A stretch of DNA of 26,589 bases from a virus. Its lineage: Duplodnaviria; Caudoviricetes. The stretch's first letter is position 1; each line of letters opens with the position of its first letter. The DNA is taken from the IMG/VR virus record IMGVR_UViG_3300035148_000427, positions 1 to 26,589 of that record, one strand, 5' to 3'. The position numbers and the translations under genes were made by a program. Positions 1,899 to 26,589 of the stretch are shown here, piece by piece. The notes under the pieces are model-generated. The model did no database searches, was not told the DNA's origin, and saw nothing but the letters and a program-made list of their open reading frames with translations.

Positions 1899-2296
1899 GT
1901 TTCGTTCCCTCCTACTGCGGGCACGATGACGAACTGACCTTGGATGTGGACATTCTCAGTCGCGTCGATGCGCACGCGCCGCACCTCGTAGAGCCAGAAG
2001 GTCGTTTCGGTTTCAGCAGCTTCGGCGAGGTCGGCCCGCGTGAACGTGAAGGCGGTCTTGCCGTTTGGCCCGTCGAGGTGGGTGCCCGCAAGATTCGCCT
2101 TCTGGATTTTGATGTCGCCGCTGTAATAGTCGCGGACGGTCACTTGCACCTCGTCTGCGCTGATGTCAACGGGATTTCCAAACCCGTCCGTCAGAACAAA
2201 CTCAAAGGTGTTGTCCGTACCACGGACCATTTTGATGCAAACGGCAGACGGTTCGACTGCGACGCAGCCGTTCTCAGTTTTCAAACAACAAGTCAT
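1895..2296 (-). CDS. BppU-like/Ig-fold virion structural protein
   Basis: 133 aa with RGTD..FEF.LTD..GNPVDIS...G...FTFT..D....YEV....G.F.I.P pattern; translationally coupled to both neighbours. Confidence 0.6.
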   Translation of the reverse strand: MTCCLKTENGCVAVEPSAVCIKMVRGTDNTFEFVLTDGFGNPVDISADEVQVTVRDYYSGDIKIQKANLAGTHLDGPNGKTAFTFTRADLAEAAETETTFWLYEVRRVRIDATENVHIQGQFVIVPAVGGNET

Positions 2297-4032
2297 GGCA
2301 AACCTCTGTACCAGCGAGCGATGTACCCACCCACGCCGGTTGTGTACGCCTTCCCTCCGACCGAGGTTTGTTCACTCTGTCCTGGGATGCGGAGGCGTCC
2401 GGTGAGTTCGGATTCGGCCTCGATTTCGCCCGCCAACCCCGCGAGGCGGGTCAACATGCCTTCGATGGACGAGTCGCCTTCGATGATGCCCTGGAGCCAA
2501 GCCCAGGCTTCCAGGCGACCCATGAGGTCGGAGTTGGCAAGGATTTCACCCGACACGCGGAAACGGCGTCGAATGTAGGCTTGGAGGTCGCTCGTCGATG
2601 CGAGCGAACCTGCCATGAGAATCTGAATCGCAAGTTTCCCCGCGAGGTCAGACGTGCCAGGCAAAACGCCTCGCACAGCGAGCAGCGAACTGGTTTTGCC
2701 CGTCAGGTCAGAATCGCCGTCGAGTGACCCTTTGGTCGCGTAGGCGACGCGAGGGATGCCCGTCAAATCGCCCCACCCGTCGATGATGCCACGGAAGGCA
2801 GTTCGACGGACAAGGCGAGCGGACAAAACAGAATTGCCCGCAAGCAGCGCCGAAACCTGTCGGATGCGCGTCAACGTCGCGTCGAGGTCGCCCACGGCGT
2901 CGAGCGAGCCAGCGATAGGAACCGCCGCCCGAAGTTTGCCCAATAGAGTCGAGTCGCCGTTGAGTTGTCCACCCAAGTCGAGGACGGCCATGAGCCAACC
3001 GTCCAGGTCGCCTTGAGCTGTCAACGCGCCTCGAATGGGCACCGATGCTCGGAGGAATCCAGGCAAATTGCTTTGCCCATGGATTTCACCCCAAAGTCTC
3101 CAAAGGAAAGTCAGGTTGCCGGGCAGCGCACTTGTCGCAGGAAGATTTCCTTGCAGGGGAACGTCTGAAATGAGCCACGCGGTGAGGTCAGACCAAGCGT
3201 CGATGCTCCCCAAAAGACTTCTGATTCGGACGAGCTTCGCAAAAAGGTCTGACTGCCCCGCAACGTACCCCGCAACCGGCACTTGGGCCGATAGGTACGA
3301 CGAAAGCGAGGATGTCCCGTCGATGTAGCCCGCGAGATGTTCCTTCTGCTCTTGGCTGAAAGTTTGCTGCGACTCAATTCGGAAAATCCTAGGGTGGACG
3401 GCTTTTGTCGGCGGACTCACCGACAAAGTGCCAATCAACCCCTGCCGGGTTTCGCGCTCTGGAGAAGAATTGCCTGTTATCCGTGCATGAAGCCACGGGC
3501 GGAAATACTCAGCCGAGAACCGCTTCACAAGAGCCAAGCGTTCGTCGGTGGCGAGCAGCCGTTTGAAAAACGAAAACTCGGCGTACTCGCCGCTGCAATA
3601 CTTTTGACTGTTCGCCGAGCCAATGGTCAGCGGCAATCCGTTGTTGAGACTTCCCCCGTTTGGGTTGAGGTCTTGCGCAAGCAAATTGCCATCACCGTAC
3701 AACCGCATGGCGGTGTCTCGGTCAACCTCGAACAAGAAATGATGCCAGTTGCCATCAAACAAGTTCGGAAAGTCGGCAGAGATTGACCTTGAAGGCGTCG
3801 TGCTCGTATTGATGCCCGCGCCTACTTGGACGCCTTGATTGTAGCGGACCTCCCATCCAACGCCCGTTTGTCCCGCTCGTCGCCCAAGAAAGCAGCACAG
3901 ATTCGGCGGCAAGGTGCCGTTGAACCTGTAGAAGAACGAAACGGCAAAGTCGTCCGTGTTCGTCAAATCAAGACGAACGTCGTTTGGAAAGGTGATGTCC
4001 TGCGACGATGCAGCCAAAAAGGACCGCGCCAT
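2293..4032 (-). CDS. LamG/concanavalin-A-like domain plus 16x20-aa repeat virion protein
   Basis: aa 1-170 carry LamG motifs (FAVSFF, DGNWHHF, LYGDG, LTIG, FFKRLL..DE); aa 233-552 are 20-aa tandem repeats; GAGGAGG RBS. Confidence 0.8.
   Translation of the reverse strand: MARSFLAASSQDITFPNDVRLDLTNTDDFAVSFFYRFNGTLPPNLCCFLGRRAGQTGVGWEVRYNQGVQVGAGINTSTTPSRSISADFPNLFDGNWHHFLFEVDRDTAMRLYGDGNLLAQDLNPNGGSLNNGLPLTIGSANSQKYCSGEYAEFSFFKRLLATDERLALVKRFSAEYFRPWLHARITGNSSPERETRQGLIGTLSVSPPTKAVHPRIFRIESQQTFSQEQKEHLAGYIDGTSSLSSYLSAQVPVAGYVAGQSDLFAKLVRIRSLLGSIDAWSDLTAWLISDVPLQGNLPATSALPGNLTFLWRLWGEIHGQSNLPGFLRASVPIRGALTAQGDLDGWLMAVLDLGGQLNGDSTLLGKLRAAVPIAGSLDAVGDLDATLTRIRQVSALLAGNSVLSARLVRRTAFRGIIDGWGDLTGIPRVAYATKGSLDGDSDLTGKTSSLLAVRGVLPGTSDLAGKLAIQILMAGSLASTSDLQAYIRRRFRVSGEILANSDLMGRLEAWAWLQGIIEGDSSIEGMLTRLAGLAGEIEAESELTGRLRIPGQSEQTSVGGKAYTTGVGGYIARWYRGLP
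2377..3336 (-). repeat. 16 degenerate tandem repeats of 20 aa (60 nt), consensus about hxGxhxGxSDLxGxLxxxxx
   Basis: Units LAGYIDGTSSLSSYLSAQVP, VAGYVAGQSDLFAKLVRIRS ... LAGEIEAESELTGRLRIPGQ align without gaps. Confidence 0.9.
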
Positions 4033-6776: not shown

Positions 6777-8681
6777 TTAGACAACCAATTCCCACTCGAC
6801 GTGGTACAGACTTGCGGTGCATCCAGTTGCCAACGTCACGCCCACATAGCAGGTATAAGAGCCGTCGCCCGCCGTCGCCTGACCCTCTGTGTTGACCGTC
6901 GCAATCGGGAAAGTACCAAAAGTCCCGTTTTGGATAGTGTGCATTTGCCGATAGCCCGTGCCCGGCGAAGCGAGCGTGCCCATCGACTCAATGAAAAAGT
7001 CGGCCTCAAGATACCAATCGCTAGGGGCGGTACACGGCGAGCCAATCATCGCCCCACCAGACATCCCAATTTGGCAAGTGATGTTGTTATTGCCAGCGCC
7101 GCCAGCGTAGTCGGTGTACCCCCACGCCTTCACTCGGAGCAAAGAGCCAGACATCATCGCCCAGAGGGGAATGTTGTAGTACGAAGCAGAGAACGCGCCC
7201 GTAGTTGTTCGTTGCTGTCCGCCGCTATTTGATTTGTGGACGCCTCTCACTTTCGCGTAGGTGTGGTTGACACCTGCGGTCGCTCCCGCTCCCCAGCGAA
7301 TAGATGGAATTGAATCGACGTAGTTGGTTGGGCGGTACTCAAACATTCGTCCCGCCGCTACGCCTGGTTCTGAACCCGTGAAAACGGGAAGTTTGACGTA
7401 GTTGGTGTCGGCGTAGAAGTCACCCGCCATCAAAGCGCCACCCGCTTCGATGTTCCCCTCCGCGTAGATTTTGTTGTCGGTGGGCGTGCCCCCTACGGCT
7501 CCGACGTAAAGGCCGTTGGCGATTCGGACACCATCAGAAACAATCCTCATTTCCTCGGTGCCGTTCAAGACGAACTGCATGTTGGTCCCGTCCCAATTCA
7601 TGTAGTCGTCCGCGCCCACATAGACGGTCCCGCCATCTGCGTACAGGTCGCCACCCGCTCGAATTTCTCCCACGGCGTAGATGTTGTTGTCGCCCGGTGC
7701 CGTTGCGTCGCCGACTCTCAAACCTCCGTACATGCTCACAAGGCCCGCAGCCGTCCACCACATGACGCCAGCCAAATTGCAGTAGATGTTGCCGCCCGTC
7801 GCGCTGTTGTAGATGTAGCTGCTTGAGTTCGGCGTCTGAATCGTGCCATCTCCCGCACGAAGGAACGTGGTAGCTGCAACGTAGGTGGTTGCCTGAACGT
7901 AGCTGCCCGCCGAAACGTAAGTCCCTGCTCCCAGAAAAGTGCCCGCCGAAATTGAAGCGGCGGCTCCGATGCAGTCATCGGTCGGAGCAGTCGTCAGGTC
8001 GCCGACGTAAAGGCCATTTCCTACGTTGAGGCCCGCCGCCTTGACTCGCACTTCCTCGACATCGGCAATCTTGAATTGGAAGTAGTCGCTGGCTCGGTTG
8101 TAGGCAATCTTGTCGCCGCTCGCGCCGAACTGAAGATAGGGCGCGGTGCCGCTGTCAAAGGCCATTTTCAGGTCGGCATCGCCGAGCTGGATTTCATCAT
8201 CAACAGGAGTCGGCGAAGCAATCCCGACGCACAGCCCACCAGGAACGATGAGGTCATCTTCGATGGTCAAATCGCCGTCGATGTAGAGTCCAGAAGCGTT
8301 GGCGTACAGCGCCAAATTTCCGCCCGCGTAGAGTTCGAGTTGAGAAGAACCGCTGTTGTACTTGATGCCGTACTGCGCACCAGTGTCCCAATAGGTATCC
8401 TTGCCGAGTCGGACCTCGGTGTTCGTGATTCGTATGGCTTCGGTAGCGTTGCCAGGACTTTTGAGCACAAGCTCGTCCTTGGACGCGCCGTCAAAAAGTC
8501 GTTCGTTCAGCCACTTCATCCACTCGCCAGTGAGTTTCGTCCGCCAGTTTTCAAAGGCCGAGGGAGGTATTTCCTCAAACAACCAGCCCTGGTCCTTTTT
8601 GACCTCTGGTGGTTCGATGATGTTCGCCGACGTGTCTGCCCATCGGGGTATCTTGGTTGGCTTTGTGTAGGTAGCTGTCAT
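6777..8681 (-). CDS. Tail fibre protein
   Basis: Follows the baseplate wedge genes. N-terminal WA...EP...K..GW...PP....NW.......W..WL fibre-anchor motif; Gly-rich beta repeats. Confidence 0.85.
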   Translation of the reverse strand: MTATYTKPTKIPRWADTSANIIEPPEVKKDQGWLFEEIPPSAFENWRTKLTGEWMKWLNERLFDGASKDELVLKSPGNATEAIRITNTEVRLGKDTYWDTGAQYGIKYNSGSSQLELYAGGNLALYANASGLYIDGDLTIEDDLIVPGGLCVGIASPTPVDDEIQLGDADLKMAFDSGTAPYLQFGASGDKIAYNRASDYFQFKIADVEEVRVKAAGLNVGNGLYVGDLTTAPTDDCIGAAASISAGTFLGAGTYVSAGSYVQATTYVAATTFLRAGDGTIQTPNSSSYIYNSATGGNIYCNLAGVMWWTAAGLVSMYGGLRVGDATAPGDNNIYAVGEIRAGGDLYADGGTVYVGADDYMNWDGTNMQFVLNGTEEMRIVSDGVRIANGLYVGAVGGTPTDNKIYAEGNIEAGGALMAGDFYADTNYVKLPVFTGSEPGVAAGRMFEYRPTNYVDSIPSIRWGAGATAGVNHTYAKVRGVHKSNSGGQQRTTTGAFSASYYNIPLWAMMSGSLLRVKAWGYTDYAGGAGNNNITCQIGMSGGAMIGSPCTAPSDWYLEADFFIESMGTLASPGTGYRQMHTIQNGTFGTFPIATVNTEGQATAGDGSYTCYVGVTLATGCTASLYHVEWELVV

Positions 8682-20583: not shown

Positions 20584-21549
20584 TTAGGCGATGACGTTCT
20601 TGAAGTAGACGCCGAGTTCGTCGGCGACCAGCTTGTTGTCATACGCCATCTCACCTTCGATGCGGTCGCTGCGGAGGCTCTGCATACGGAACCGCAACAT
20701 GCGGAGGCCGTTTGCCGAAGCGCCCAGGTAGCCCGTCCACGAGAAGGTGTACCCGGCAGTCGGCATCATGAGCGAAGGACGCGGCGCTGCGTAGCAGAGC
20801 AACGCGCACTTCTGGAACATGAACCGAAGGTCGTCTACGGCCTTCTCAGCGGCGATGTTCTCAATCGCGCCAGCGATGAGAACTTCCTCGATGCCCAACA
20901 CCGACGCCAGCAGGTCGATGTTCACAATCTTCCGCTGGGTGATGGCGATGCGGTCGAGGAAATCGCCGTTGTCCTGCAAAATGGTCCACACGTCCTCGGC
21001 AAGCACCAGCTTGTTCGGACGGAAGCCCGTTTTGCGCTTCATGGCAGACATCTGCGCTCGGATGTCGGCGATGGGCTTGGAACCACCCGCGCTCCAGAGA
21101 GTGCTTGGGGTGATGTCGCCGCCCGTTGTCGAACCCTTCCACACGCCGTCCTTGAAGTATTTGGTCGCCCAATCCTTCTCGCGGCGCAGGAGCAGACCGC
21201 GCGTCACGAACTCGGTGCTTGCGGCATCGAGGTTGAGCGGCGCGTCCTGGTTGGCTCGCAGTTGGTCGTCGATGTCCTTGTGCAACGCTTTGACGTTGCA
21301 CTGGTACGTCGGCGTGCTGTCAACGTCGAACCCGCTGCCCACGGACTCTTGGCTCAACCCGCGCTCACGCGCTTCGGTTCTGAACCACTGGCCCTTGGGG
21401 AACGTGAAGTAGCGGTCAGACTGCTTCGCCACTGGCACGTTCGGGAACACCTTGTCAGCAATGAATTCGGTTTGGTCCTGAAGGAAAGCCACGCTGATGT
21501 TGGTCAGCGGTGCGTTCACATGGACATCACTGGGAGTTGGTTGCGGCAT
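20584..21549 (-). CDS. Major capsid protein (HK97 fold)
   Basis: 321 aa; HV.APLTNISVA.......FIAD.VFP.VPV.KQS..Y, L..E...A, W......PI.DI........TG..PN....., PT.GYTF.W, G..F..VI motifs; AAGGAGG RBS. Confidence 0.9.
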   Translation of the reverse strand: MPQPTPSDVHVNAPLTNISVAFLQDQTEFIADKVFPNVPVAKQSDRYFTFPKGQWFRTEARERGLSQESVGSGFDVDSTPTYQCNVKALHKDIDDQLRANQDAPLNLDAASTEFVTRGLLLRREKDWATKYFKDGVWKGSTTGGDITPSTLWSAGGSKPIADIRAQMSAMKRKTGFRPNKLVLAEDVWTILQDNGDFLDRIAITQRKIVNIDLLASVLGIEEVLIAGAIENIAAEKAVDDLRFMFQKCALLCYAAPRPSLMMPTAGYTFSWTGYLGASANGLRMLRFRMQSLRSDRIEGEMAYDNKLVADELGVYFKNVIA

Positions 21550-21562
21550 GATTCATTCCTCC

Positions 21563-21937
21563 TTATGGGGCCACGCCCGTGATGCCAAGGAACACGGAAA
21601 TGAGTTCGTTGGCTCCACTGGAACCCGTCAACGCCCGGCCACGAAACACCGTGCCCGAGGCAGCCAAGATTGCCTTGCCAGTTGCGTCTGAACCCACAAG
21701 GTCACCAGGGTTCACGACGCCGCCAGCAACGACCTTGCTCACACCCGCAGGCGCAAGCTCGACCGCTTGGTCGGCAACCGGTTTGTCTTGGATGACTCCA
21801 TCGCAAATCCCGCCCAAGGTGGTATTCACCTGGACCTTGCCGAGATTGTCGATGTAGCCGAAAAGAAACTGTGCGGAGCTGAGGTCAGCACCGGCCACCA
21901 GGCCAGGGATGACCAGCTTTGGAAGTTCAAATGCCAT
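21563..21937 (-). CDS. Capsid cement/decoration protein (DUF2190-like)
   Basis: 124 aa; AGADLS..QF, GV.Q.KP, GVSKV.AG.....GD.V.SDA.GKA.......G.AL......E.I.V motifs; AAGGAGG RBS. Confidence 0.8.
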   Translation of the reverse strand: MAFELPKLVIPGLVAGADLSSAQFLFGYIDNLGKVQVNTTLGGICDGVIQDKPVADQAVELAPAGVSKVVAGGVVNPGDLVGSDATGKAILAASGTVFRGRALTGSSGANELISVFLGITGVAP

Positions 21938-21948
21938 TTGTGGCCTCC

Positions 21949-22917
21949 TTACTCAACGCCCGCAGGCGAAAGTTGCTGTGGATGCTCCGACAAGTACCGC
22001 TGATAGAGGTCGGGGTGATTCTTCATCACCTGCGCCATGGCCTTCTCGCGGCTCATGGGCTTGTCCGACTTCTCAACGATGCCGTCAGCCATCTTGGTGA
22101 TTTGGTCCCAAGCCGACCCGCCCCCGCCGCCCATGTTCGGGTTGGTGGGGATTCCACCTTCGCTGAACATCGACGACTTCTTGATGGCGGCGCTTGCGGC
22201 CTTCATCTGCTCGAACTGCTTCTTGGCGAGTTCGGGGTTGATGTCGGCCAGACCCTTGAGCGTTTTGCCCATTTCCTCGGCAGACTGACCGGGGAAGTGG
22301 CTCAACTCAGTCTTGGCCTTCTCGACCCAAGACTCAAGTTCACGAGCGTCGCGCTCGGCCTTGAGCGACTTCTGAACCTCGTCGTTCTGCTTTCGCAGCG
22401 CTTCGAGTTCGTCTGTCTGGGCCTTGAAAAGCCCCTCAACGTCCTTGCGCACGTCCTCGGGCAACGACTCCAGACCCTTCTTGACCTTTTTCGAGGTCGC
22501 ATCCGGGTATCCGTACTCGTCGTCCTCTTCCGACTCGCCCTTCTTCTTGGTCTTCATCTTGTCCTTGCCGTTCATCATCTCATCTTCGGGCTTCTTTGCC
22601 TTTTCGGTGTAGCCCGCGATGCTTGCGAGTTTGGCAAGTACGTCCTTCGGCATCTCGTCCTTGAAAGCCTGAAGGATGCGCAGCGCGCCCTTCGCGGCCC
22701 CTTGGCCCTTGTCCGAAACCTTGGCTTCTTTGAGTACGGCGTCCAGCTCGGCCTCGCCGTCTGTCTCCGTCTCAAGGACAGCCTTCAGAATTTCCTGCAT
22801 GTCCATGGATTCCTCCGTTTTGAAGATGGGAAACCGCTTTTTACGGTTTGCCCCTCTGGTTACTAGGCTGACTTCGGCTGCCTTCAGACCAGTCAGCGCG
22901 GTCAACTCCTTGTTCAC
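21949..22917 (-). CDS. Scaffolding protein with an N-terminal protease-like EVSLV..GAN segment
   Basis: 322 aa, highly charged coiled coil between protease and capsid genes; GTGA overlap and AAGGAG RBS; C-terminal helix-turn-helix ending PDLYQRY. Confidence 0.8.
   Translation of the reverse strand: MNKELTALTGLKAAEVSLVTRGANRKKRFPIFKTEESMDMQEILKAVLETETDGEAELDAVLKEAKVSDKGQGAAKGALRILQAFKDEMPKDVLAKLASIAGYTEKAKKPEDEMMNGKDKMKTKKKGESEEDDEYGYPDATSKKVKKGLESLPEDVRKDVEGLFKAQTDELEALRKQNDEVQKSLKAERDARELESWVEKAKTELSHFPGQSAEEMGKTLKGLADINPELAKKQFEQMKAASAAIKKSSMFSEGGIPTNPNMGGGGGSAWDQITKMADGIVEKSDKPMSREKAMAQVMKNHPDLYQRYLSEHPQQLSPAGVE
22804..22816 (-). promoter_or_regulatory. Internal RBS (GGAGG) and in-frame ATG (Met38) in the scaffold gene
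   Basis: Minus strand GGAGG-AATCC-ATG-GAC-ATG, in frame with 21949..22917. Confidence 0.6.
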
Positions 22918-25900
22918 TTCGCTTCTCCTTCTGCCGGTACGAGGTCTAGGAATGTGACCTTCGGCATCATTCCCTCAGACATCGGTGCGCGGAAACCAAC
23001 CCCACCAGGACTGAAGGCGTTGACATCGCCGTCTTGGTAGGCTTTCCACTCATCATCGCCGAGTTGAACGCCAAGGACCCATGACCCAGAGTGCAAAACG
23101 TCCGAACCGAATTTTCTTCGGTAGACTGAATGATTCTCCCCTCGCATCGCTTTGAGGTATTCGGCACGCGATGGGTATTGCTCGACCCAACTTTCGACCA
23201 CTTTGGCATCTGCCTTGGCCTTATGTTGAAATCCAATCACCATCTGTCCCTTCAAGAAGGCGTGCGCCGTTTCCTCTACCGCTGCGGGTGGAATCCAGTC
23301 GTTGTGCGCATCGGCACGCGGACCGTTTGGCCCATACGGGTCAACCACCACCCCGTAGACGATTCGCTTGGTTTGGTCGGCTTTGGAGATTGCAACGTGC
23401 TTCCTCGCCTCTGCCACCTTGCCGCTGCGAACGTCGTACTTCACCGGCTTCTCGCCAGGTTTCGCCCACACGACGAAATCCCGGCCTTTCCGCCGTTGTT
23501 CGCTTATGACATCAGCGAGTTCTTGAGCCTCGGCTCTGGGCTTCTGGTCGGTGGGCTTGTCAATCAGCCACACCCTTTCCGCCCCTAACCTCGGCAGCGT
23601 CAACATATATCTCCCAGAAAGGTACTTGCCGTCAAGGAAAATTTCTACGGCGTGCTGGGTAGCGACTCCGAGTTGGTAGGTCCCCTCGTCGCGCACGAAA
23701 AACTTCGAGTAGGTCTGCGACGTGGAGCCTGGGCCACCCGGCTCGACCGCCTCACCTTTGCCTTCGCCCATTTTCAACCAATCTTTGGGCTGCTGGAGCT
23801 TGGGCGCAAGGCGAAGATTTTGGTCGGCCTTGAGGTCGATGAGTTTGTCCTTGTGCGTCAACCCTCGGTTGTCTTTCGTTTCGCCGAGAAACACCGCCCA
23901 TCCAAAAAGTCCGTCTGGGCCTTCCAACCGGATGTCGCCATGAACCGAATGGTCGGTGGTGTCCATCAGCGCCTCGTCGGTCATGCCCTTCTGTTTTTCG
24001 TCGAGGCCCCGCCAATGGTGCTGGTAAACAAACCGACCGCCTTGCTTGGTCGGCATGTACTCGTGCCAATTTTCTTCCCACAACCGCTGCGCACGGTCGC
24101 CACGAGTTTCTTCCTCGCCCTCCGTTTTGCGGATTGCGTCGAGGATGCGCCCTGTTTTGCGCCCGACCTCTCCTGAATCACCGAATCGTCGCACAGCGGA
24201 CGGGTGCGGGAGGACAAAGCCTGCGCGTTCCCCCAACATGCGCTTGGCTGTTTGACCGAGCGCGACAACGACCTTCGGTTTCATGCGGTCGAGTTCGTCG
24301 TGAAGCCAGGGCTTCCATTCCTCGGCCTCGGCATTGGTTGGCTCCCGTACCTTTCCCTTCTCGTCGGTCAAAAACCGAGGCACGGCGTTGGTCATCGCTA
24401 CGTCCGCACGCGATAGCCCAAGCGGTTTCAAGTACATCTCGACAAAAAGTTCTGAGCCTGCCCCCACGAAGGGTTCGCCGCGCACCGCCTCCGTCCTACT
24501 AGGCGATGCGCCGACGAACATGATGGGAGCACCCTCCGGTCCAAAAGTCGGCACGATGTCGAGCGCCTTTTGAAGCACAGCGGCTCGGCGTGCAACGTCA
24601 ATCGCTTGCGCGGCGAAGTAGGGAGCTTTGCGCGTGCGGTCAACGTCAATGACCCTCGGCCCCAACCACATGAGGCGTTTTCCCGCCTCATCGGGGATGA
24701 GTTCAAGAACCTGCACGGTCAAAACCTCACCCGGCTTTGCCTCAATGTTCGTGTTGAATGTCTTGCCGAGGTCGATGTACTCGGTCCCGTTCAATGAGCG
24801 GGTGTTGGCGAACTCAAGGTCGCCAGGCAGTAATCCGCACCAATAGTTGTAGTCACCTGTTTTGGTTTTTTGTGCGTCGAGCACTGCGACCTTGAGTTCT
24901 GCCACCCGCTTGAGTTTCGACCATTCGTTGGTCGTGCCGCCTGTCTCATACTTTCCAGTAGAGGTCTTGGCGACCAATCCTTCCGAAGCATCGAAACCAA
25001 AGGCCCATTTCGCCGCTGCCTTGAGCGCAGGCAACGAATTCACCCACCGCGCTTGCGTGATGGGCAACTTTCCTTTCACCTTCGACTCGAGAATTTCTCG
25101 CCTGTCCTTGAACGGAAGGTCGCTCAAATCCTCGTCGAGGAACGGCGCGTCGAAAACAGTCACGACGATTTTCTCGCCCGCGTCCAGTTTCGGGTCGTCG
25201 CTGTTCAGTTTCGCCATCATGTTTCTGGGCAATCGCTTGCCCTCCTTCTCGATGGCAATGTCCGCGTCCAACACGAAATCGCCGCCCATTTTTTTGAGCG
25301 CGGCGGCGAGGTCGGGAAAGCGGTCGATGAGATTCTTGCCGATTTGACCCTCAAACCACGCGCCCACCTCATCGCCCTTCTTGAGCAAGATGGTTCTGAA
25401 CCCGTTGAGTTTTGGTTCAACGTCGATGGGCAAGCGGTCCTCTGCCCAAGCCCACACGTCGTCCACGTCATAGAGTTCGGTAAAGCCTTCGACCGCTGGC
25501 TTGGGTGGTGTGAATCGCTGGAACGGTTGCAACGCTTTTTCCACTGTGGAGGGCTTGCGCAAAGCGCCGCAGACGTAGATGAGATTTCCCTTCTTGCGCT
25601 CGACCAAATGCTCGACCTCGAACATGGGTCGGTTTTCAGCGAGGTCGGCCTGCGTCCAAAAGGCGAAACTCGCCTTGTTCCAAAATGACTTGTGCTCAGG
25701 GTGGGCGAAAGCGCCTGGGCCATCTGTCGAGGGAATCTCGAACACGAACCGCCCGCCTGGTTTGAGCACACGATGGATTTCTGCCATCACCTTCGATTTG
25801 TCTGCGAGGTGTTCGAGCACATGGTTCGCTCGAACCTCGTCCGCGTAGTCGTCGCTGAACGGTAGCCCACCATCGAGGTCGTGAACGAGGTCCACGCCTT

Positions 25901-26567
25901 CACCGCCGCGCTTGTCCACGCCGATGTAGCCTGCGGGTTTGCAATCGCCACAACCTATGTCGATGCGCACGTCCTCTGCCTTCACGAATTGCGTGGCGAT
26001 GTCCTCGCGCCGTCGCAGGACCAAATCGTAGAGGGGGATGAAGTCGCCGTGAGCGCCTTGGGGGTTGCTGAGCCAGTGGAGCTTTCCCTTTTTGTCTGGG
26101 TCGAGGGTGTTCCTGATGGGCAGCCACACGTTCTCGGATTGAATCACCACCTGTCCTGAATCTTTGTCCCACACCGCCCGAAGCATCACGTCCATATCCT
26201 TCGGGTCAGGATGTCCTTTCGCAAGCGACCCCACCACGGAAACGAAATCGCGCACCAACACCACGTCGCGGGGGAGTTCGTTCATGCGCTTGTGAAGCGC
26301 CCACCCTGTTTTCGTTTTGCGGAAATCTTCGATTGCATCCACGAGGGCGCTTGGGCTGATTTCAAACCCGCGCCGTTTCATCTCTTGGCTGACCCACACG
26401 GCAGCGTTGATGATGTCTTCGGTGGGCTGCTTGCGCTTTGTGGCGTTGGCAAACCACTGGTTGAGGCGTAGCCAAGCCTCGGAAATTTCCTCGTCGGGGA
26501 GCTTTTTCAACTGAGCGGGCCGCATATCGCCAAGGGCAACTTTTTCGAGCGTCGTGGGTTCGTCCAC
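22914..26567 (-). CDS. Multidomain polyprotein: NTase-like / SAM methyltransferase / ATP-dependent DNA ligase / UDG-like / LigD phosphoesterase-like / XkdF-type prohead protease (5' end uncertain)
   Basis: Motifs read from the translation: VVGS...DMDV; IDIGCG...HVLEH...RVLKPGG; EPKLNGFR, VFD, EGLVAK, WSKLK; FVGASP...E...GEPFVG, TN, VALG, HPS; FVYQHH, HGDIRLE, WAV, RDEGTY, LDG..LSGRY; RIVYGVV..P...DAH.D, IGFQH, VVESW, GSWVLG, FSPGG. Confidence 0.9.
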   Translation of the reverse strand: MDEPTTLEKVALGDMRPAQLKKLPDEEISEAWLRLNQWFANATKRKQPTEDIINAAVWVSQEMKRRGFEISPSALVDAIEDFRKTKTGWALHKRMNELPRDVVLVRDFVSVVGSLAKGHPDPKDMDVMLRAVWDKDSGQVVIQSENVWLPIRNTLDPDKKGKLHWLSNPQGAHGDFIPLYDLVLRRREDIATQFVKAEDVRIDIGCGDCKPAGYIGVDKRGGEGVDLVHDLDGGLPFSDDYADEVRANHVLEHLADKSKVMAEIHRVLKPGGRFVFEIPSTDGPGAFAHPEHKSFWNKASFAFWTQADLAENRPMFEVEHLVERKKGNLIYVCGALRKPSTVEKALQPFQRFTPPKPAVEGFTELYDVDDVWAWAEDRLPIDVEPKLNGFRTILLKKGDEVGAWFEGQIGKNLIDRFPDLAAALKKMGGDFVLDADIAIEKEGKRLPRNMMAKLNSDDPKLDAGEKIVVTVFDAPFLDEDLSDLPFKDRREILESKVKGKLPITQARWVNSLPALKAAAKWAFGFDASEGLVAKTSTGKYETGGTTNEWSKLKRVAELKVAVLDAQKTKTGDYNYWCGLLPGDLEFANTRSLNGTEYIDLGKTFNTNIEAKPGEVLTVQVLELIPDEAGKRLMWLGPRVIDVDRTRKAPYFAAQAIDVARRAAVLQKALDIVPTFGPEGAPIMFVGASPSRTEAVRGEPFVGAGSELFVEMYLKPLGLSRADVAMTNAVPRFLTDEKGKVREPTNAEAEEWKPWLHDELDRMKPKVVVALGQTAKRMLGERAGFVLPHPSAVRRFGDSGEVGRKTGRILDAIRKTEGEEETRGDRAQRLWEENWHEYMPTKQGGRFVYQHHWRGLDEKQKGMTDEALMDTTDHSVHGDIRLEGPDGLFGWAVFLGETKDNRGLTHKDKLIDLKADQNLRLAPKLQQPKDWLKMGEGKGEAVEPGGPGSTSQTYSKFFVRDEGTYQLGVATQHAVEIFLDGKYLSGRYMLTLPRLGAERVWLIDKPTDQKPRAEAQELADVISEQRRKGRDFVVWAKPGEKPVKYDVRSGKVAEARKHVAISKADQTKRIVYGVVVDPYGPNGPRADAHNDWIPPAAVEETAHAFLKGQMVIGFQHKAKADAKVVESWVEQYPSRAEYLKAMRGENHSVYRRKFGSDVLHSGSWVLGVQLGDDEWKAYQDGDVNAFSPGGVGFRAPMSEGMMPKVTFLDLVPAEGEAK
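22917..23381 (-). other. XkdF-like phage serine (prohead) protease domain, aa ~1063-1217
   Basis: KRIVYGVVVDP, DAHNDW, VEETAHAFL, IGFQH (candidate His1115), GSWVLGV, W.....G...AFSPGG (candidate Ser1186); sits at the protease position before scaffold and MCP. Confidence 0.88.
23553..24041 (-). other. LigD-type 3'-phosphoesterase (PE) domain, aa ~843-1005
   Basis: Colinear match to the PE consensus as recalled: FVxQxH, HxDxRLE, WAV, RLA, DxGxY, FxLDGxxLxGRY, WLxxK. Confidence 0.8.
24129..24563 (-). other. Uracil-DNA glycosylase family-4-like domain, aa ~669-813
   Basis: G...A.IMFVG.SP...E...GEPFVG..., TNAV, P...E....PWL..EL...KPKVVVALG.TA, HPS. Confidence 0.88.
24573..25532 (-). other. ATP-dependent DNA ligase (adenylation + OB domain), aa ~346-665
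   Basis: Motif I EPKLNGFR (K386), III FVLDAD, IIIa VFD, P...RR..L, IV EGLVAK, V WSKLK, followed by a beta-rich OB-like region. Confidence 0.9.
25554..25976 (-). other. Class I SAM-dependent methyltransferase domain (Methyltransf_11-like), aa ~198-338
   Basis: IDIGCG, GVD, DLVHDL...LPF.D...DEV...HVLEH, M.EIHRVLKPGG.F...P. Confidence 0.88.
25998..26270 (-). other. Pol-beta-superfamily nucleotidyltransferase-like domain, aa ~100-190
   Basis: hhGS-x9-DhDh signature: VSVVGSLAKGHPDPKDMDVML. Confidence 0.6.
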
Positions 26568-26589
26568 ACGCGCACGCGCAAGCGCGCCC

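Follow-up and report, generated by a model that had tools for sequence, protein, structure and literature searches.

A phage polyprotein joining an XkdF head protease to ligase, nucleotidyltransferase and LigD-phosphoesterase-like modules, with predicted self-processing and a plausible repair role

Results

A multi-enzyme polyprotein at the prohead-protease locus

We analysed the 26,589-nt caudovirus sequence IMGVR_UViG_3300035148_000427 (this whole stretch is called the window below), in which a single minus-strand open reading frame (ORF) at 22914-26567 stays open for 1217 codons and encodes a 1217-aa polyprotein with several enzyme-like modules ahead of a C-terminal XkdF prohead protease. 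The features of the locus are listed below, with positions in the window, strand and the basis of each assignment; K-numbered residues are predicted cut sites.

22914..26567, minus: polyprotein ORF, 1217 aa, truncated at its 5' side by the contig end (open frame and homologue leader)
26541..26588, minus: end of the leader (seven upstream codons and residues 1-9), whose last residue is the predicted cut site K9 (homologue alignment)
26289..26540, minus: module N0, a helical hairpin remotely resembling endonuclease V (EndoV) / Pyr_excise, ending at predicted K84 or K93 (weak profile matches)
25980..26288, minus: minimal nucleotidyltransferase (NTase)-like module of Pol-beta type (G113 and S114, D124, D126, D181), ending at predicted K196 (motifs)
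25536..25979, minus: class I S-adenosylmethionine methyltransferase of small-molecule type, ending at predicted K344 (Pfam)
24567..25535, minus: ATP-dependent DNA ligase, adenylation domain and oligonucleotide-binding (OB)-like region (K386), ending at predicted K667 (Pfam)
24126..24566, minus: module of the uracil-DNA glycosylase (UDG) superfamily, family-4-like, motif-1 Glu replaced, no Fe-S cysteines, ending at predicted K814 (Pfam)
23382..24125, minus: LigD 3'-phosphoesterase (PE) fold with insertions (Q849, H851, H876, D878, R880 and invariant K923), ending at predicted K1062 (fold)
22914..23381, minus: XkdF (S78_2) prohead protease (D1086, H1115, S1186) with stop codon (Pfam and fold)
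21949..22917, minus: probable scaffold, 322 aa, predicted protease substrate (position and motif density)
21563..21937, minus: small head protein without motif excess, with a weak Pfam cement match and the PHROG label scaffolding (Pfam and PHROG)
20584..21549, minus: major head protein without motif excess (5 motifs, 4.5 expected) (PHROG)

The frame continues without a stop to the end of the contig, most homologues carry ~45 extra N-terminal residues, and the seven in-frame codons upstream of the annotated GTG match the end of the homologues' leader. Because the frame is open to the contig end and the upstream codons match the leader, the GTG is an internal Val codon, with the 5' end off the contig, about 43 leader residues lost and a true protein of probably ~1260 aa. 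The original prediction, made from this DNA alone, placed one 1217-aa polyprotein at the prohead-protease locus; its frame and locus stand, and its 5' end does not. The methyltransferase, ligase, UDG-like and XkdF domains that it named were recovered by Pfam profiles above the curated cut-off (Methyltransf_11 at residues 234-276, ATP-dependent ligase at 383-553, UDG at 674-794 and XkdF at 1059-1190), and its LigD-PE-like domain, which has no Pfam match in the window protein, was borne out by fold (Z 13.6). The NTase-like domain is backed in part, by invariant motifs, weak Pfam matches in homologues and a candidate Atlas match, but not by a fold match in the PDB. One additional module, the helical domain N0 (residues 10-88), had been overlooked.

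A whole-protein search returned 76 full-length homologues of the polyprotein, and contigs from other runs span each of its six internal junctions at least once (three of the four runs belong to one study, which may be the source of the window), so that both contigs and homologues support the proposed fusion. The contig does end within the gene and no single contig bridges the whole stretch, but with these homologues, the bridged junctions and the same module set in 27 of 115 complete members of the family, an assembly or gene-calling artefact is a negligible prospect. In the adjacent scaffold gene, contigs of runs X1-X3 represent a diverged allele with small indels (window 22431-22595); their protease region is identical.

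A hydrophobic-x-Lys motif marks the module borders

The motif [VILF]-x-K occurs in the window protein at residues 9, 84/93, 196, 344, 667, 814 and 1062, which is to say at every module border. The whole chain contains 22 such motifs, so the pattern alone is loose. Statistics were drawn from 593 border windows in 152 non-redundant proteins, with expected numbers from shuffles. When all 20 residues were considered at the last position of [VILF]-x-X, Lys was the only one strongly enriched at borders (722 vs 341, z 24), the next being Gln (z 3.8). The motif preceded XkdF in 119/121 cases, N0 in 81/83, UDG in 66/73, PE in 121/146, NTase in 81/111, ligase in 65/92 and methyltransferase in 31/50, and was found at the junction inside the ligase in 18/103 proteins vs 55 expected.

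Neighbouring genes follow the same division. Sixty-seven scaffold-like neighbours contained 425 motifs vs 119 expected, the window's own 322-aa scaffold 16 vs 8.0, and 42 major head proteins 25 vs 40. Presence of the protease also mattered: XkdF-bearing polyproteins had the motif in 336/410 windows (179 expected), compared with 7/33 (7.6 expected) for 20 XkdF-less proteins, and thinning to <50% PE identity left 40/47 vs 20 and 3/10 vs 2, respectively. At the N terminus, a Lys stands 8 residues ahead of a conserved Pro in 89/96 leader-bearing homologues, and 11/17 leaderless homologues start 7 residues before that Pro, immediately behind the predicted first cut. The XkdF relative of Bacillus phage 0105phi7-2 holds 22 motifs vs 10.6 expected; the capsid protein of this phage has a motif ending at K11, and its virions lack capsid residues 1-10 (PMC10219371).

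A motif that stands at the borders and in the scaffold, is rare inside the ligase and falls to chance level without XkdF argues that the polyprotein is likely to process itself, and the protease probably cuts at the Lys sites. The proposal that fusion loads the enzymes into the head and the protease then frees them thereby gains strong support at the level of sequence, from the border motif, the scaffold and the link to XkdF.

Other proteases may use other sites. At some loci (L040, L042, L150, L164; L045, L057, L061, L063-L066, L139) a polyprotein without XkdF is followed by another protease-like gene or domain, and XkdF-less polyproteins, with no excess of [VILF]-x-K, carry Q-L-A or L-S-E instead, possibly the sites of those proteases. 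The scaffold of the window (21949-22917, minus) and scaffold-like neighbours in L001-L164 contain Tyr-Gly-Tyr-Pro / Tyr-Pro-Tyr, a 3-mer class that exceeds all others in enrichment when scaffolds of three protease types are considered; it may be a shared docking signal.

Catalytic residues of the modules

The ligase scored 55.1 bits in Pfam (cut-off 26.2) and retains its motifs, motif III apart (K386, D473, E529 and K551 each in 101/103 proteins, G530 in 103/103). It aligns with an archaeal ligase over 260 residues, through the OB region, and also matches LigD-type DNA ligases; all six of its solved-structure matches are DNA ligases. The NTase motifs are kept to a similar degree (G113, D124 and D126 in 114/114, S114 in 112/114, D181 in 100/114, the last presumably being the third carboxylate). 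The NTase segment of 48 homologues gave weak Pfam matches to NTP_transf_2 (4) and DUF6932 (13); the candidate Atlas match scored 0.89-0.90. A model of N0 plus NTase (residues 1-197) had no PDB match (Foldseek, VIA), and PDB-sequence searches with profiles A2 and A4 gave nothing meaningful.

Residues 816-1217 were modelled from 64 sequences with a mean predicted local distance difference test (pLDDT) score of 92.9. The PE part produced seven Foldseek matches to LigD at E <= 0.001, all of them PE domains, and superposed on 3p4h with Z 13.6 and a root-mean-square deviation of 1.6 over 117 aligned residues (Z 11.6 for 3n9b). H876, D878 and R880, which align with LigD His48, Asp50 and Arg52, are present in 150/150 relatives and K923 is invariant; H851 (147/150) we take to be LigD His42. 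In the protease part, the fit to T4 gp21 was middling (Z 6.6), XkdF scored 49.1 bits in Pfam (cut-off 24), and the putative catalytic residues are nearly fixed (D1086 and S1186 in 117/117, H1115 in 116/117).

The remaining modules depart further from their models. In the UDG module, the residues equivalent to E47, N80 and H155 are E693 (60/77), N727 (58/77) and H788 (75/77), while the motif-1 Glu (Tth E41) is replaced by A687 (Ala in 54/77, with Glu outside the five commonest residues). Family 4 UDGs have four Fe-S cysteines; residues 668-814 contain no Cys, and the NCBIfam score is 66.6, below the cut-off of 125.3. With the Glu replaced and the cysteines absent, the module does not belong to family 4. 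The methyltransferase matches small-molecule types only, and on these matches is not a repair type. For N0, Pyr_excise was the top Pfam match in 8/9 segments, six of which had been chosen for an earlier match, and was absent for the window's own segment; hhalign gave 95% to an annotated phage EndoV with an alignment that contained the row by which EndoV had been found. No fold match and no usable Atlas match were obtained for N0, and direct BLAST against the EndoV-like insert of locus L071 gave no alignment. The catalytic Glu of EndoV lies in the first long helix, and the N0 position aligned to it is R34 (Arg in 99/110). Because Arg occupies the position of the catalytic Glu, N0 is probably not a glycosylase. 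A role for N0 as a cleavage-activated apurinic/apyrimidinic (AP) lyase is also disfavoured, given this Arg and ~5 extra N-terminal residues relative to annotated phage EndoV.

Overall identity among members is 35-65% while catalytic residues are near-invariant. The modules are under selection; the substrates of PE and UDG cannot be read from their sequences.

A widespread family that exchanges cargo

Scans identified 165 loci of the polyprotein family. The PE profile reached 215 clusters (50% identity) at E <= 1e-30 and 409 at 1e-10, with the tail of the latter uninspected; among the best 150 PE relatives, 101 had NTase, 95 XkdF, 93 ligase, 40 UDG and 29 methyltransferase. Architectures were counted in the 115 proteins, of 166 non-redundant ones, that are complete from N0 to XkdF. 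Ten architectures occur. PE is present in 112, a number inflated by the fact that most loci were found via PE, NTase in 96, UDG in 84, ligase in 78 and methyltransferase in 41, and the full set of the window in 27. Every one of the 78 ligase-bearing members also has NTase, and 40 of the 41 methyltransferases are accompanied by ligase. PE and UDG persist in 15 members that lack both NTase and ligase. A crude comparison of ligase and PE tree distances (102 proteins, rank correlation 0.12) hints that the ligase was replaced.

The slots between modules hold further enzymes. We scanned 79 of 112 unassigned segments and found 14 metallo-beta-lactamase (MBL) folds, six Dam-type methylases, two 2H domains and single occurrences of Acb1, GNAT, ADP-ribosyltransferase (ART), DHH, a Pyr_excise-like domain, a second LigD PE and an S78 protease. 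Thirty further proteins, which may overlap this set, contained MBL (9), Dam (4), Acb1 (2) and 2H (2). Gathering the XkdF-fused homologues and tabulating their cargo, as had been suggested, thus revealed a large family whose members exchange cargo. The label of a 'repair / end-joining toolkit' fits the linked NTase-ligase-phosphoesterase core (78/78) but not the whole protein, with its unlinked UDG, its small-molecule methyltransferase and the Acb1, Dam, 2H, MBL and GNAT domains of relatives.

Several relatives deserve separate mention. The anti-CBASS domain Acb1 lies within the polyprotein at L133:7739-8560 (plus strand) and in P0165 and P0231, which suggests that Acb1 is packaged. At L045:4989-5966 (plus) the C-terminal part of the chain is made up of another LigD PE, the second in this protein and Pfam-positive, and a head-protease-like domain of a different kind. 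An 1804-aa relative at L039:4476-9890 (plus) has its ligase interrupted by a 184-aa insert, followed by ADP-ribosyltransferase domains, with PE as a separate downstream ORF. Recurring or large cargo-slot inserts without a clear Pfam family (L007:8081-8512, L022:5104-5460, L028:3816-4367, L149:10697-12082 and L003:5786-6568), one group of which is His-rich with a weak YmaF match, are candidate new early-acting proteins. Near XkdF relatives without PE (P0099, P0101-P0103, P0106) carry UDG and other modules such as AAA_33 kinase-like or 2H domains. LAGLIDADG-like or HNH domains interrupt the PE module in P0155 and P0206, possibly as mobile insertions.

The genomic setting is that of a head module. 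Around 126 polyprotein ORFs, the largest neighbour clusters were scaffold-like (72), cement-like (55), major head (46), MuF-like (43) and portal (38), as judged from one scanned representative per cluster and with many loci cut short, and the typical order is portal, MuF-like, polyprotein, scaffold-like, cement-like and major head. The window scaffold falls in PHROG families of unknown function, and contractile tail genes lie downstream of the head genes (Pfam, PHROG). In the tail-fibre region are a 579-aa protein with a Laminin_G_3 domain (window 2293-4032, minus) and a 634-aa protein that matches neither Pfam nor PHROG (6777-8681, minus). Of two complete relatives, one has an integrase and DnaB and the other its own DNA polymerase; the family covers myo- and sipho-type as well as temperate and non-temperate genomes. 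Four loci come from assemblies titled Dehalococcoidales, Dehalococcoides, Chloroflexota and Leptospira, labels that are not proof of the hosts.

Comparison with known systems

Polyvalent proteins of phages that end in an assemblin-like peptidase have been described and their processing at assembly predicted (Iyer et al. 2017, PMC5512222). The polyprotein likewise joins many unrelated enzyme domains, variable among relatives, in one chain at a virion-gene locus, with a head peptidase last and with predicted processing and delivery, and the two share minimal NTase, 2H, GNAT, ART and adenine methylase as cargo. They differ in that the main text of PMC5512222 makes no mention of UDG, LigD or glycosylase and its three uses of 'ligase' concern RNA ligases, that the passages on these proteins contain no cut-site code, and that the core here consists of NTase, DNA ligase and LigD-PE fold. 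In the open-licence literature, with the supplements of PMC5512222 outside the search, we found no published account of this combination; as far as the passages go, the design is known in print as a prediction, a polyvalent protein with a C-terminal head protease, and the cargo set is not.

In T4, according to passages of PMC9026906, the head protease gp21 removes propeptides, degrades scaffold and frees the ejected proteins IPI-III and Alt, of which IPI blocks a restriction enzyme. The protease has a related fold (Z 6.6), but in T4 each cargo protein has its own gene and a short targeting peptide, and cleavage occurs after Glu, whereas here there is one chain with a predicted Lys site. The stand-alone XkdF protease-scaffolds of 0105phi7-2 (gp5) and halovirus HSTV-1 (gp13) are closer in the protease (~30% identical; 31% for 0105phi7-2), in having the motif directly before the protease domain and in their locus between portal/MuF and capsid genes; unlike the polyprotein, they carry no enzyme cargo and have the scaffold fused behind the protease instead of as a separate next gene.

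LigD of bacterial and archaeal non-homologous end joining (PE + POL + LIG) shares the PE fold, including the metal triad and a counterpart of Arg52, and the ATP-dependent ligase partner, as set out in parts of PMC8656161. In the polyprotein, however, a minimal Pol-beta-like NTase takes the place of the primase-type POL, 19 related records contain no Ku, PE is enlarged and apparently changed at His84/Tyr88, residues that LigD needs, the modules are predicted to be cut apart and the gene lies in the head module. A primase-type POL gave no Pfam or NCBIfam match in the polyprotein, which has no unassigned stretch long enough to hold one; having no POL and no Ku, the polyprotein is not a LigD. A functional analogy only is offered by African swine fever virus, an unrelated eukaryotic virus with a ligase, polymerase X and AP endonuclease in its virion core and a proposed pre-replication genome repair (passages of PMC12172490); these enzymes come from separate genes, not from its polyproteins.

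Proposed mechanism and alternatives

We propose that the polyprotein would enter the prohead via its protease or leader, and that the XkdF protease would cut after hydrophobic-x-Lys both in the scaffold and at the borders of the modules in its own chain. Fragments of 10-36 kDa would remain in the particle and then be ejected with the DNA, as T4 internal proteins and Alt are. Nicks or breaks in the incoming genome would then likely be healed and sealed by ligase, phosphoesterase and NTase ahead of phage gene expression. UDG and methyltransferase would be additional cargo that members can do without, comparable to Acb1 and Dam elsewhere in the family, in a slot for a general counter-defence payload. 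Survival of the modules in the particle and their ejection are somewhat more likely than not; given both, healing and sealing of DNA ends has about an even to slightly better chance of being the main job of the core. The chain of self-cut, packaged and ejected enzymes whose core mends phage DNA is our best overall explanation, offered tentatively. Among the options of the original prediction, repair inside the capsid seems the least likely because ligase and NTase need nucleotide substrates.

A number of observations pull the other way. PE has Gln (Q926, 123/150) and Trp (W930, 150/150) at positions that we take, from a hand alignment, to be LigD His84 and Tyr88. The Glu of ligase motif III is D436 in the window (Asp in 52/103, Glu in 40/103), and no DNA-binding domain precedes the ligase. 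Among the 115 complete members, 37 have no ligase, and UDG and ligase are unlinked (30 with UDG only, 24 with ligase only); the link between NTase and ligase may itself reflect joint deletion of adjacent modules. No PE module was found in 50,697 isolated-phage records. The 19 related records, ten of them at least 90% complete, held no Ku (the window being a fragment, and host Ku being possible) and no AP endonuclease of the IV family (the exonuclease III type was not searched for), in line with the absence of Ku and AP endonuclease domains noted before. As to the cut sites, we settled on the motif once the query had been inspected, shuffles ignore common ancestry, the small XkdF-less control comprises 20 proteins, and an overall motif excess is absent from HSTV-1 gp13 (5 vs 3.2). 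The 0105phi7-2 data agree with the Lys sites but are confounded by the use of trypsin, with K11 retained in a few spectra (PMC10219371), and minimal NTases of this type have been linked to protein modification in passages of PMC5512222.

Packaged and ejected modules might instead have nucleotide signals, proteins or host nucleic acids as their targets. The NTase would modify protein or RNA, the altered PE would degrade a nucleotide or oligonucleotide signal and the UDG fold would bind or attack modified DNA. Such roles have been proposed for minimal NTases and 2H domains (PMC5512222, in part), and they would suit the co-cargo Acb1 (1/79 segments; 2/30 proteins), MBL (14/79; 9/30), 2H, DHH, GNAT and ART, as well as the altered active sites of PE and UDG and the retention of both in the 15 members without NTase and ligase. 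On the other side, the similarity of the ligase to archaeal and LigD-type DNA ligases extends through the OB region; as a partner of PE it is second only to NTase, being present in 93 of the best 150 relatives, and PE with ligase is the LigD pairing. We regard this alternative as unlikely, if still one to be reckoned with.

The same motif and context evidence would be seen if the chain were cut at the Lys sites and the enzymes acted in the producing cell, sealing nicks in DNA during packaging, with the pieces lost thereafter. Fusion would give late expression and placement at the prohead, ATP is present in the producer cell and not in the particle, and no separate ligase or UDG was found in 56 of 126 called ORFs from the two complete relatives. 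But Acb1, Dam and 2H, which occupy the same slots, would be most useful at entry, and a folded 36 kDa ligase would not easily escape a closed prohead, and we consider action in the producer doubtful.

Free gain and loss of modules (10 architectures among 115) could also mean neutral baggage degraded along with the scaffold, an improbable reading against near-invariant catalytic residues, a motif kept at borders yet seldom present at the junction within the ligase, and a cost to a 50-kb genome of ~7% of its length. An RNA repair set delivered with the genome and mending tRNA cut by host anticodon nucleases, for which NTase, phosphoesterase and ligase could in principle use RNA ends, LigD PE acts on 3'-ribonucleotides and relatives have 2H and P-loop kinase-like (AAA_33) modules, is highly improbable, with 6/6 structural matches of the ligase to DNA ligases and UDG and EndoV-like partners that point to DNA.

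Returning to mending of the entering genome, its fullest form would be a protease-released, virion-delivered short-patch repair and end-joining kit, with all steps completed before any phage gene is read. UDG would excise uracil built up in the waiting particle, the EndoV-like module would bind or open the lesion, PE would clear blocked 3' ends, NTase would add a nucleotide and a possibly pre-adenylated ligase would seal. Such a complete kit seems unlikely.

Discussion

The polyprotein is real and conserved, and a repair role of its core is plausible. The DNA of a phage is at its most exposed during the minutes that precede expression of its genes. Most packaged countermeasures known so far work by blocking or evading host nucleases, and a virion that brings enzymes for healing and sealing DNA would, if true, follow a different strategy. 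Should the complete kit prove true, bacteriophages would have an equivalent of the repair set that African swine fever virus packages, and a counter-defence that reverses the cuts of host nucleases rather than preventing them. Each released module would be small enough for expression and assay. With a predicted cut code at the module borders, and the known Acb1 among the cargo, unknown inserts in the slots of this family become candidate early-acting counter-defence proteins.

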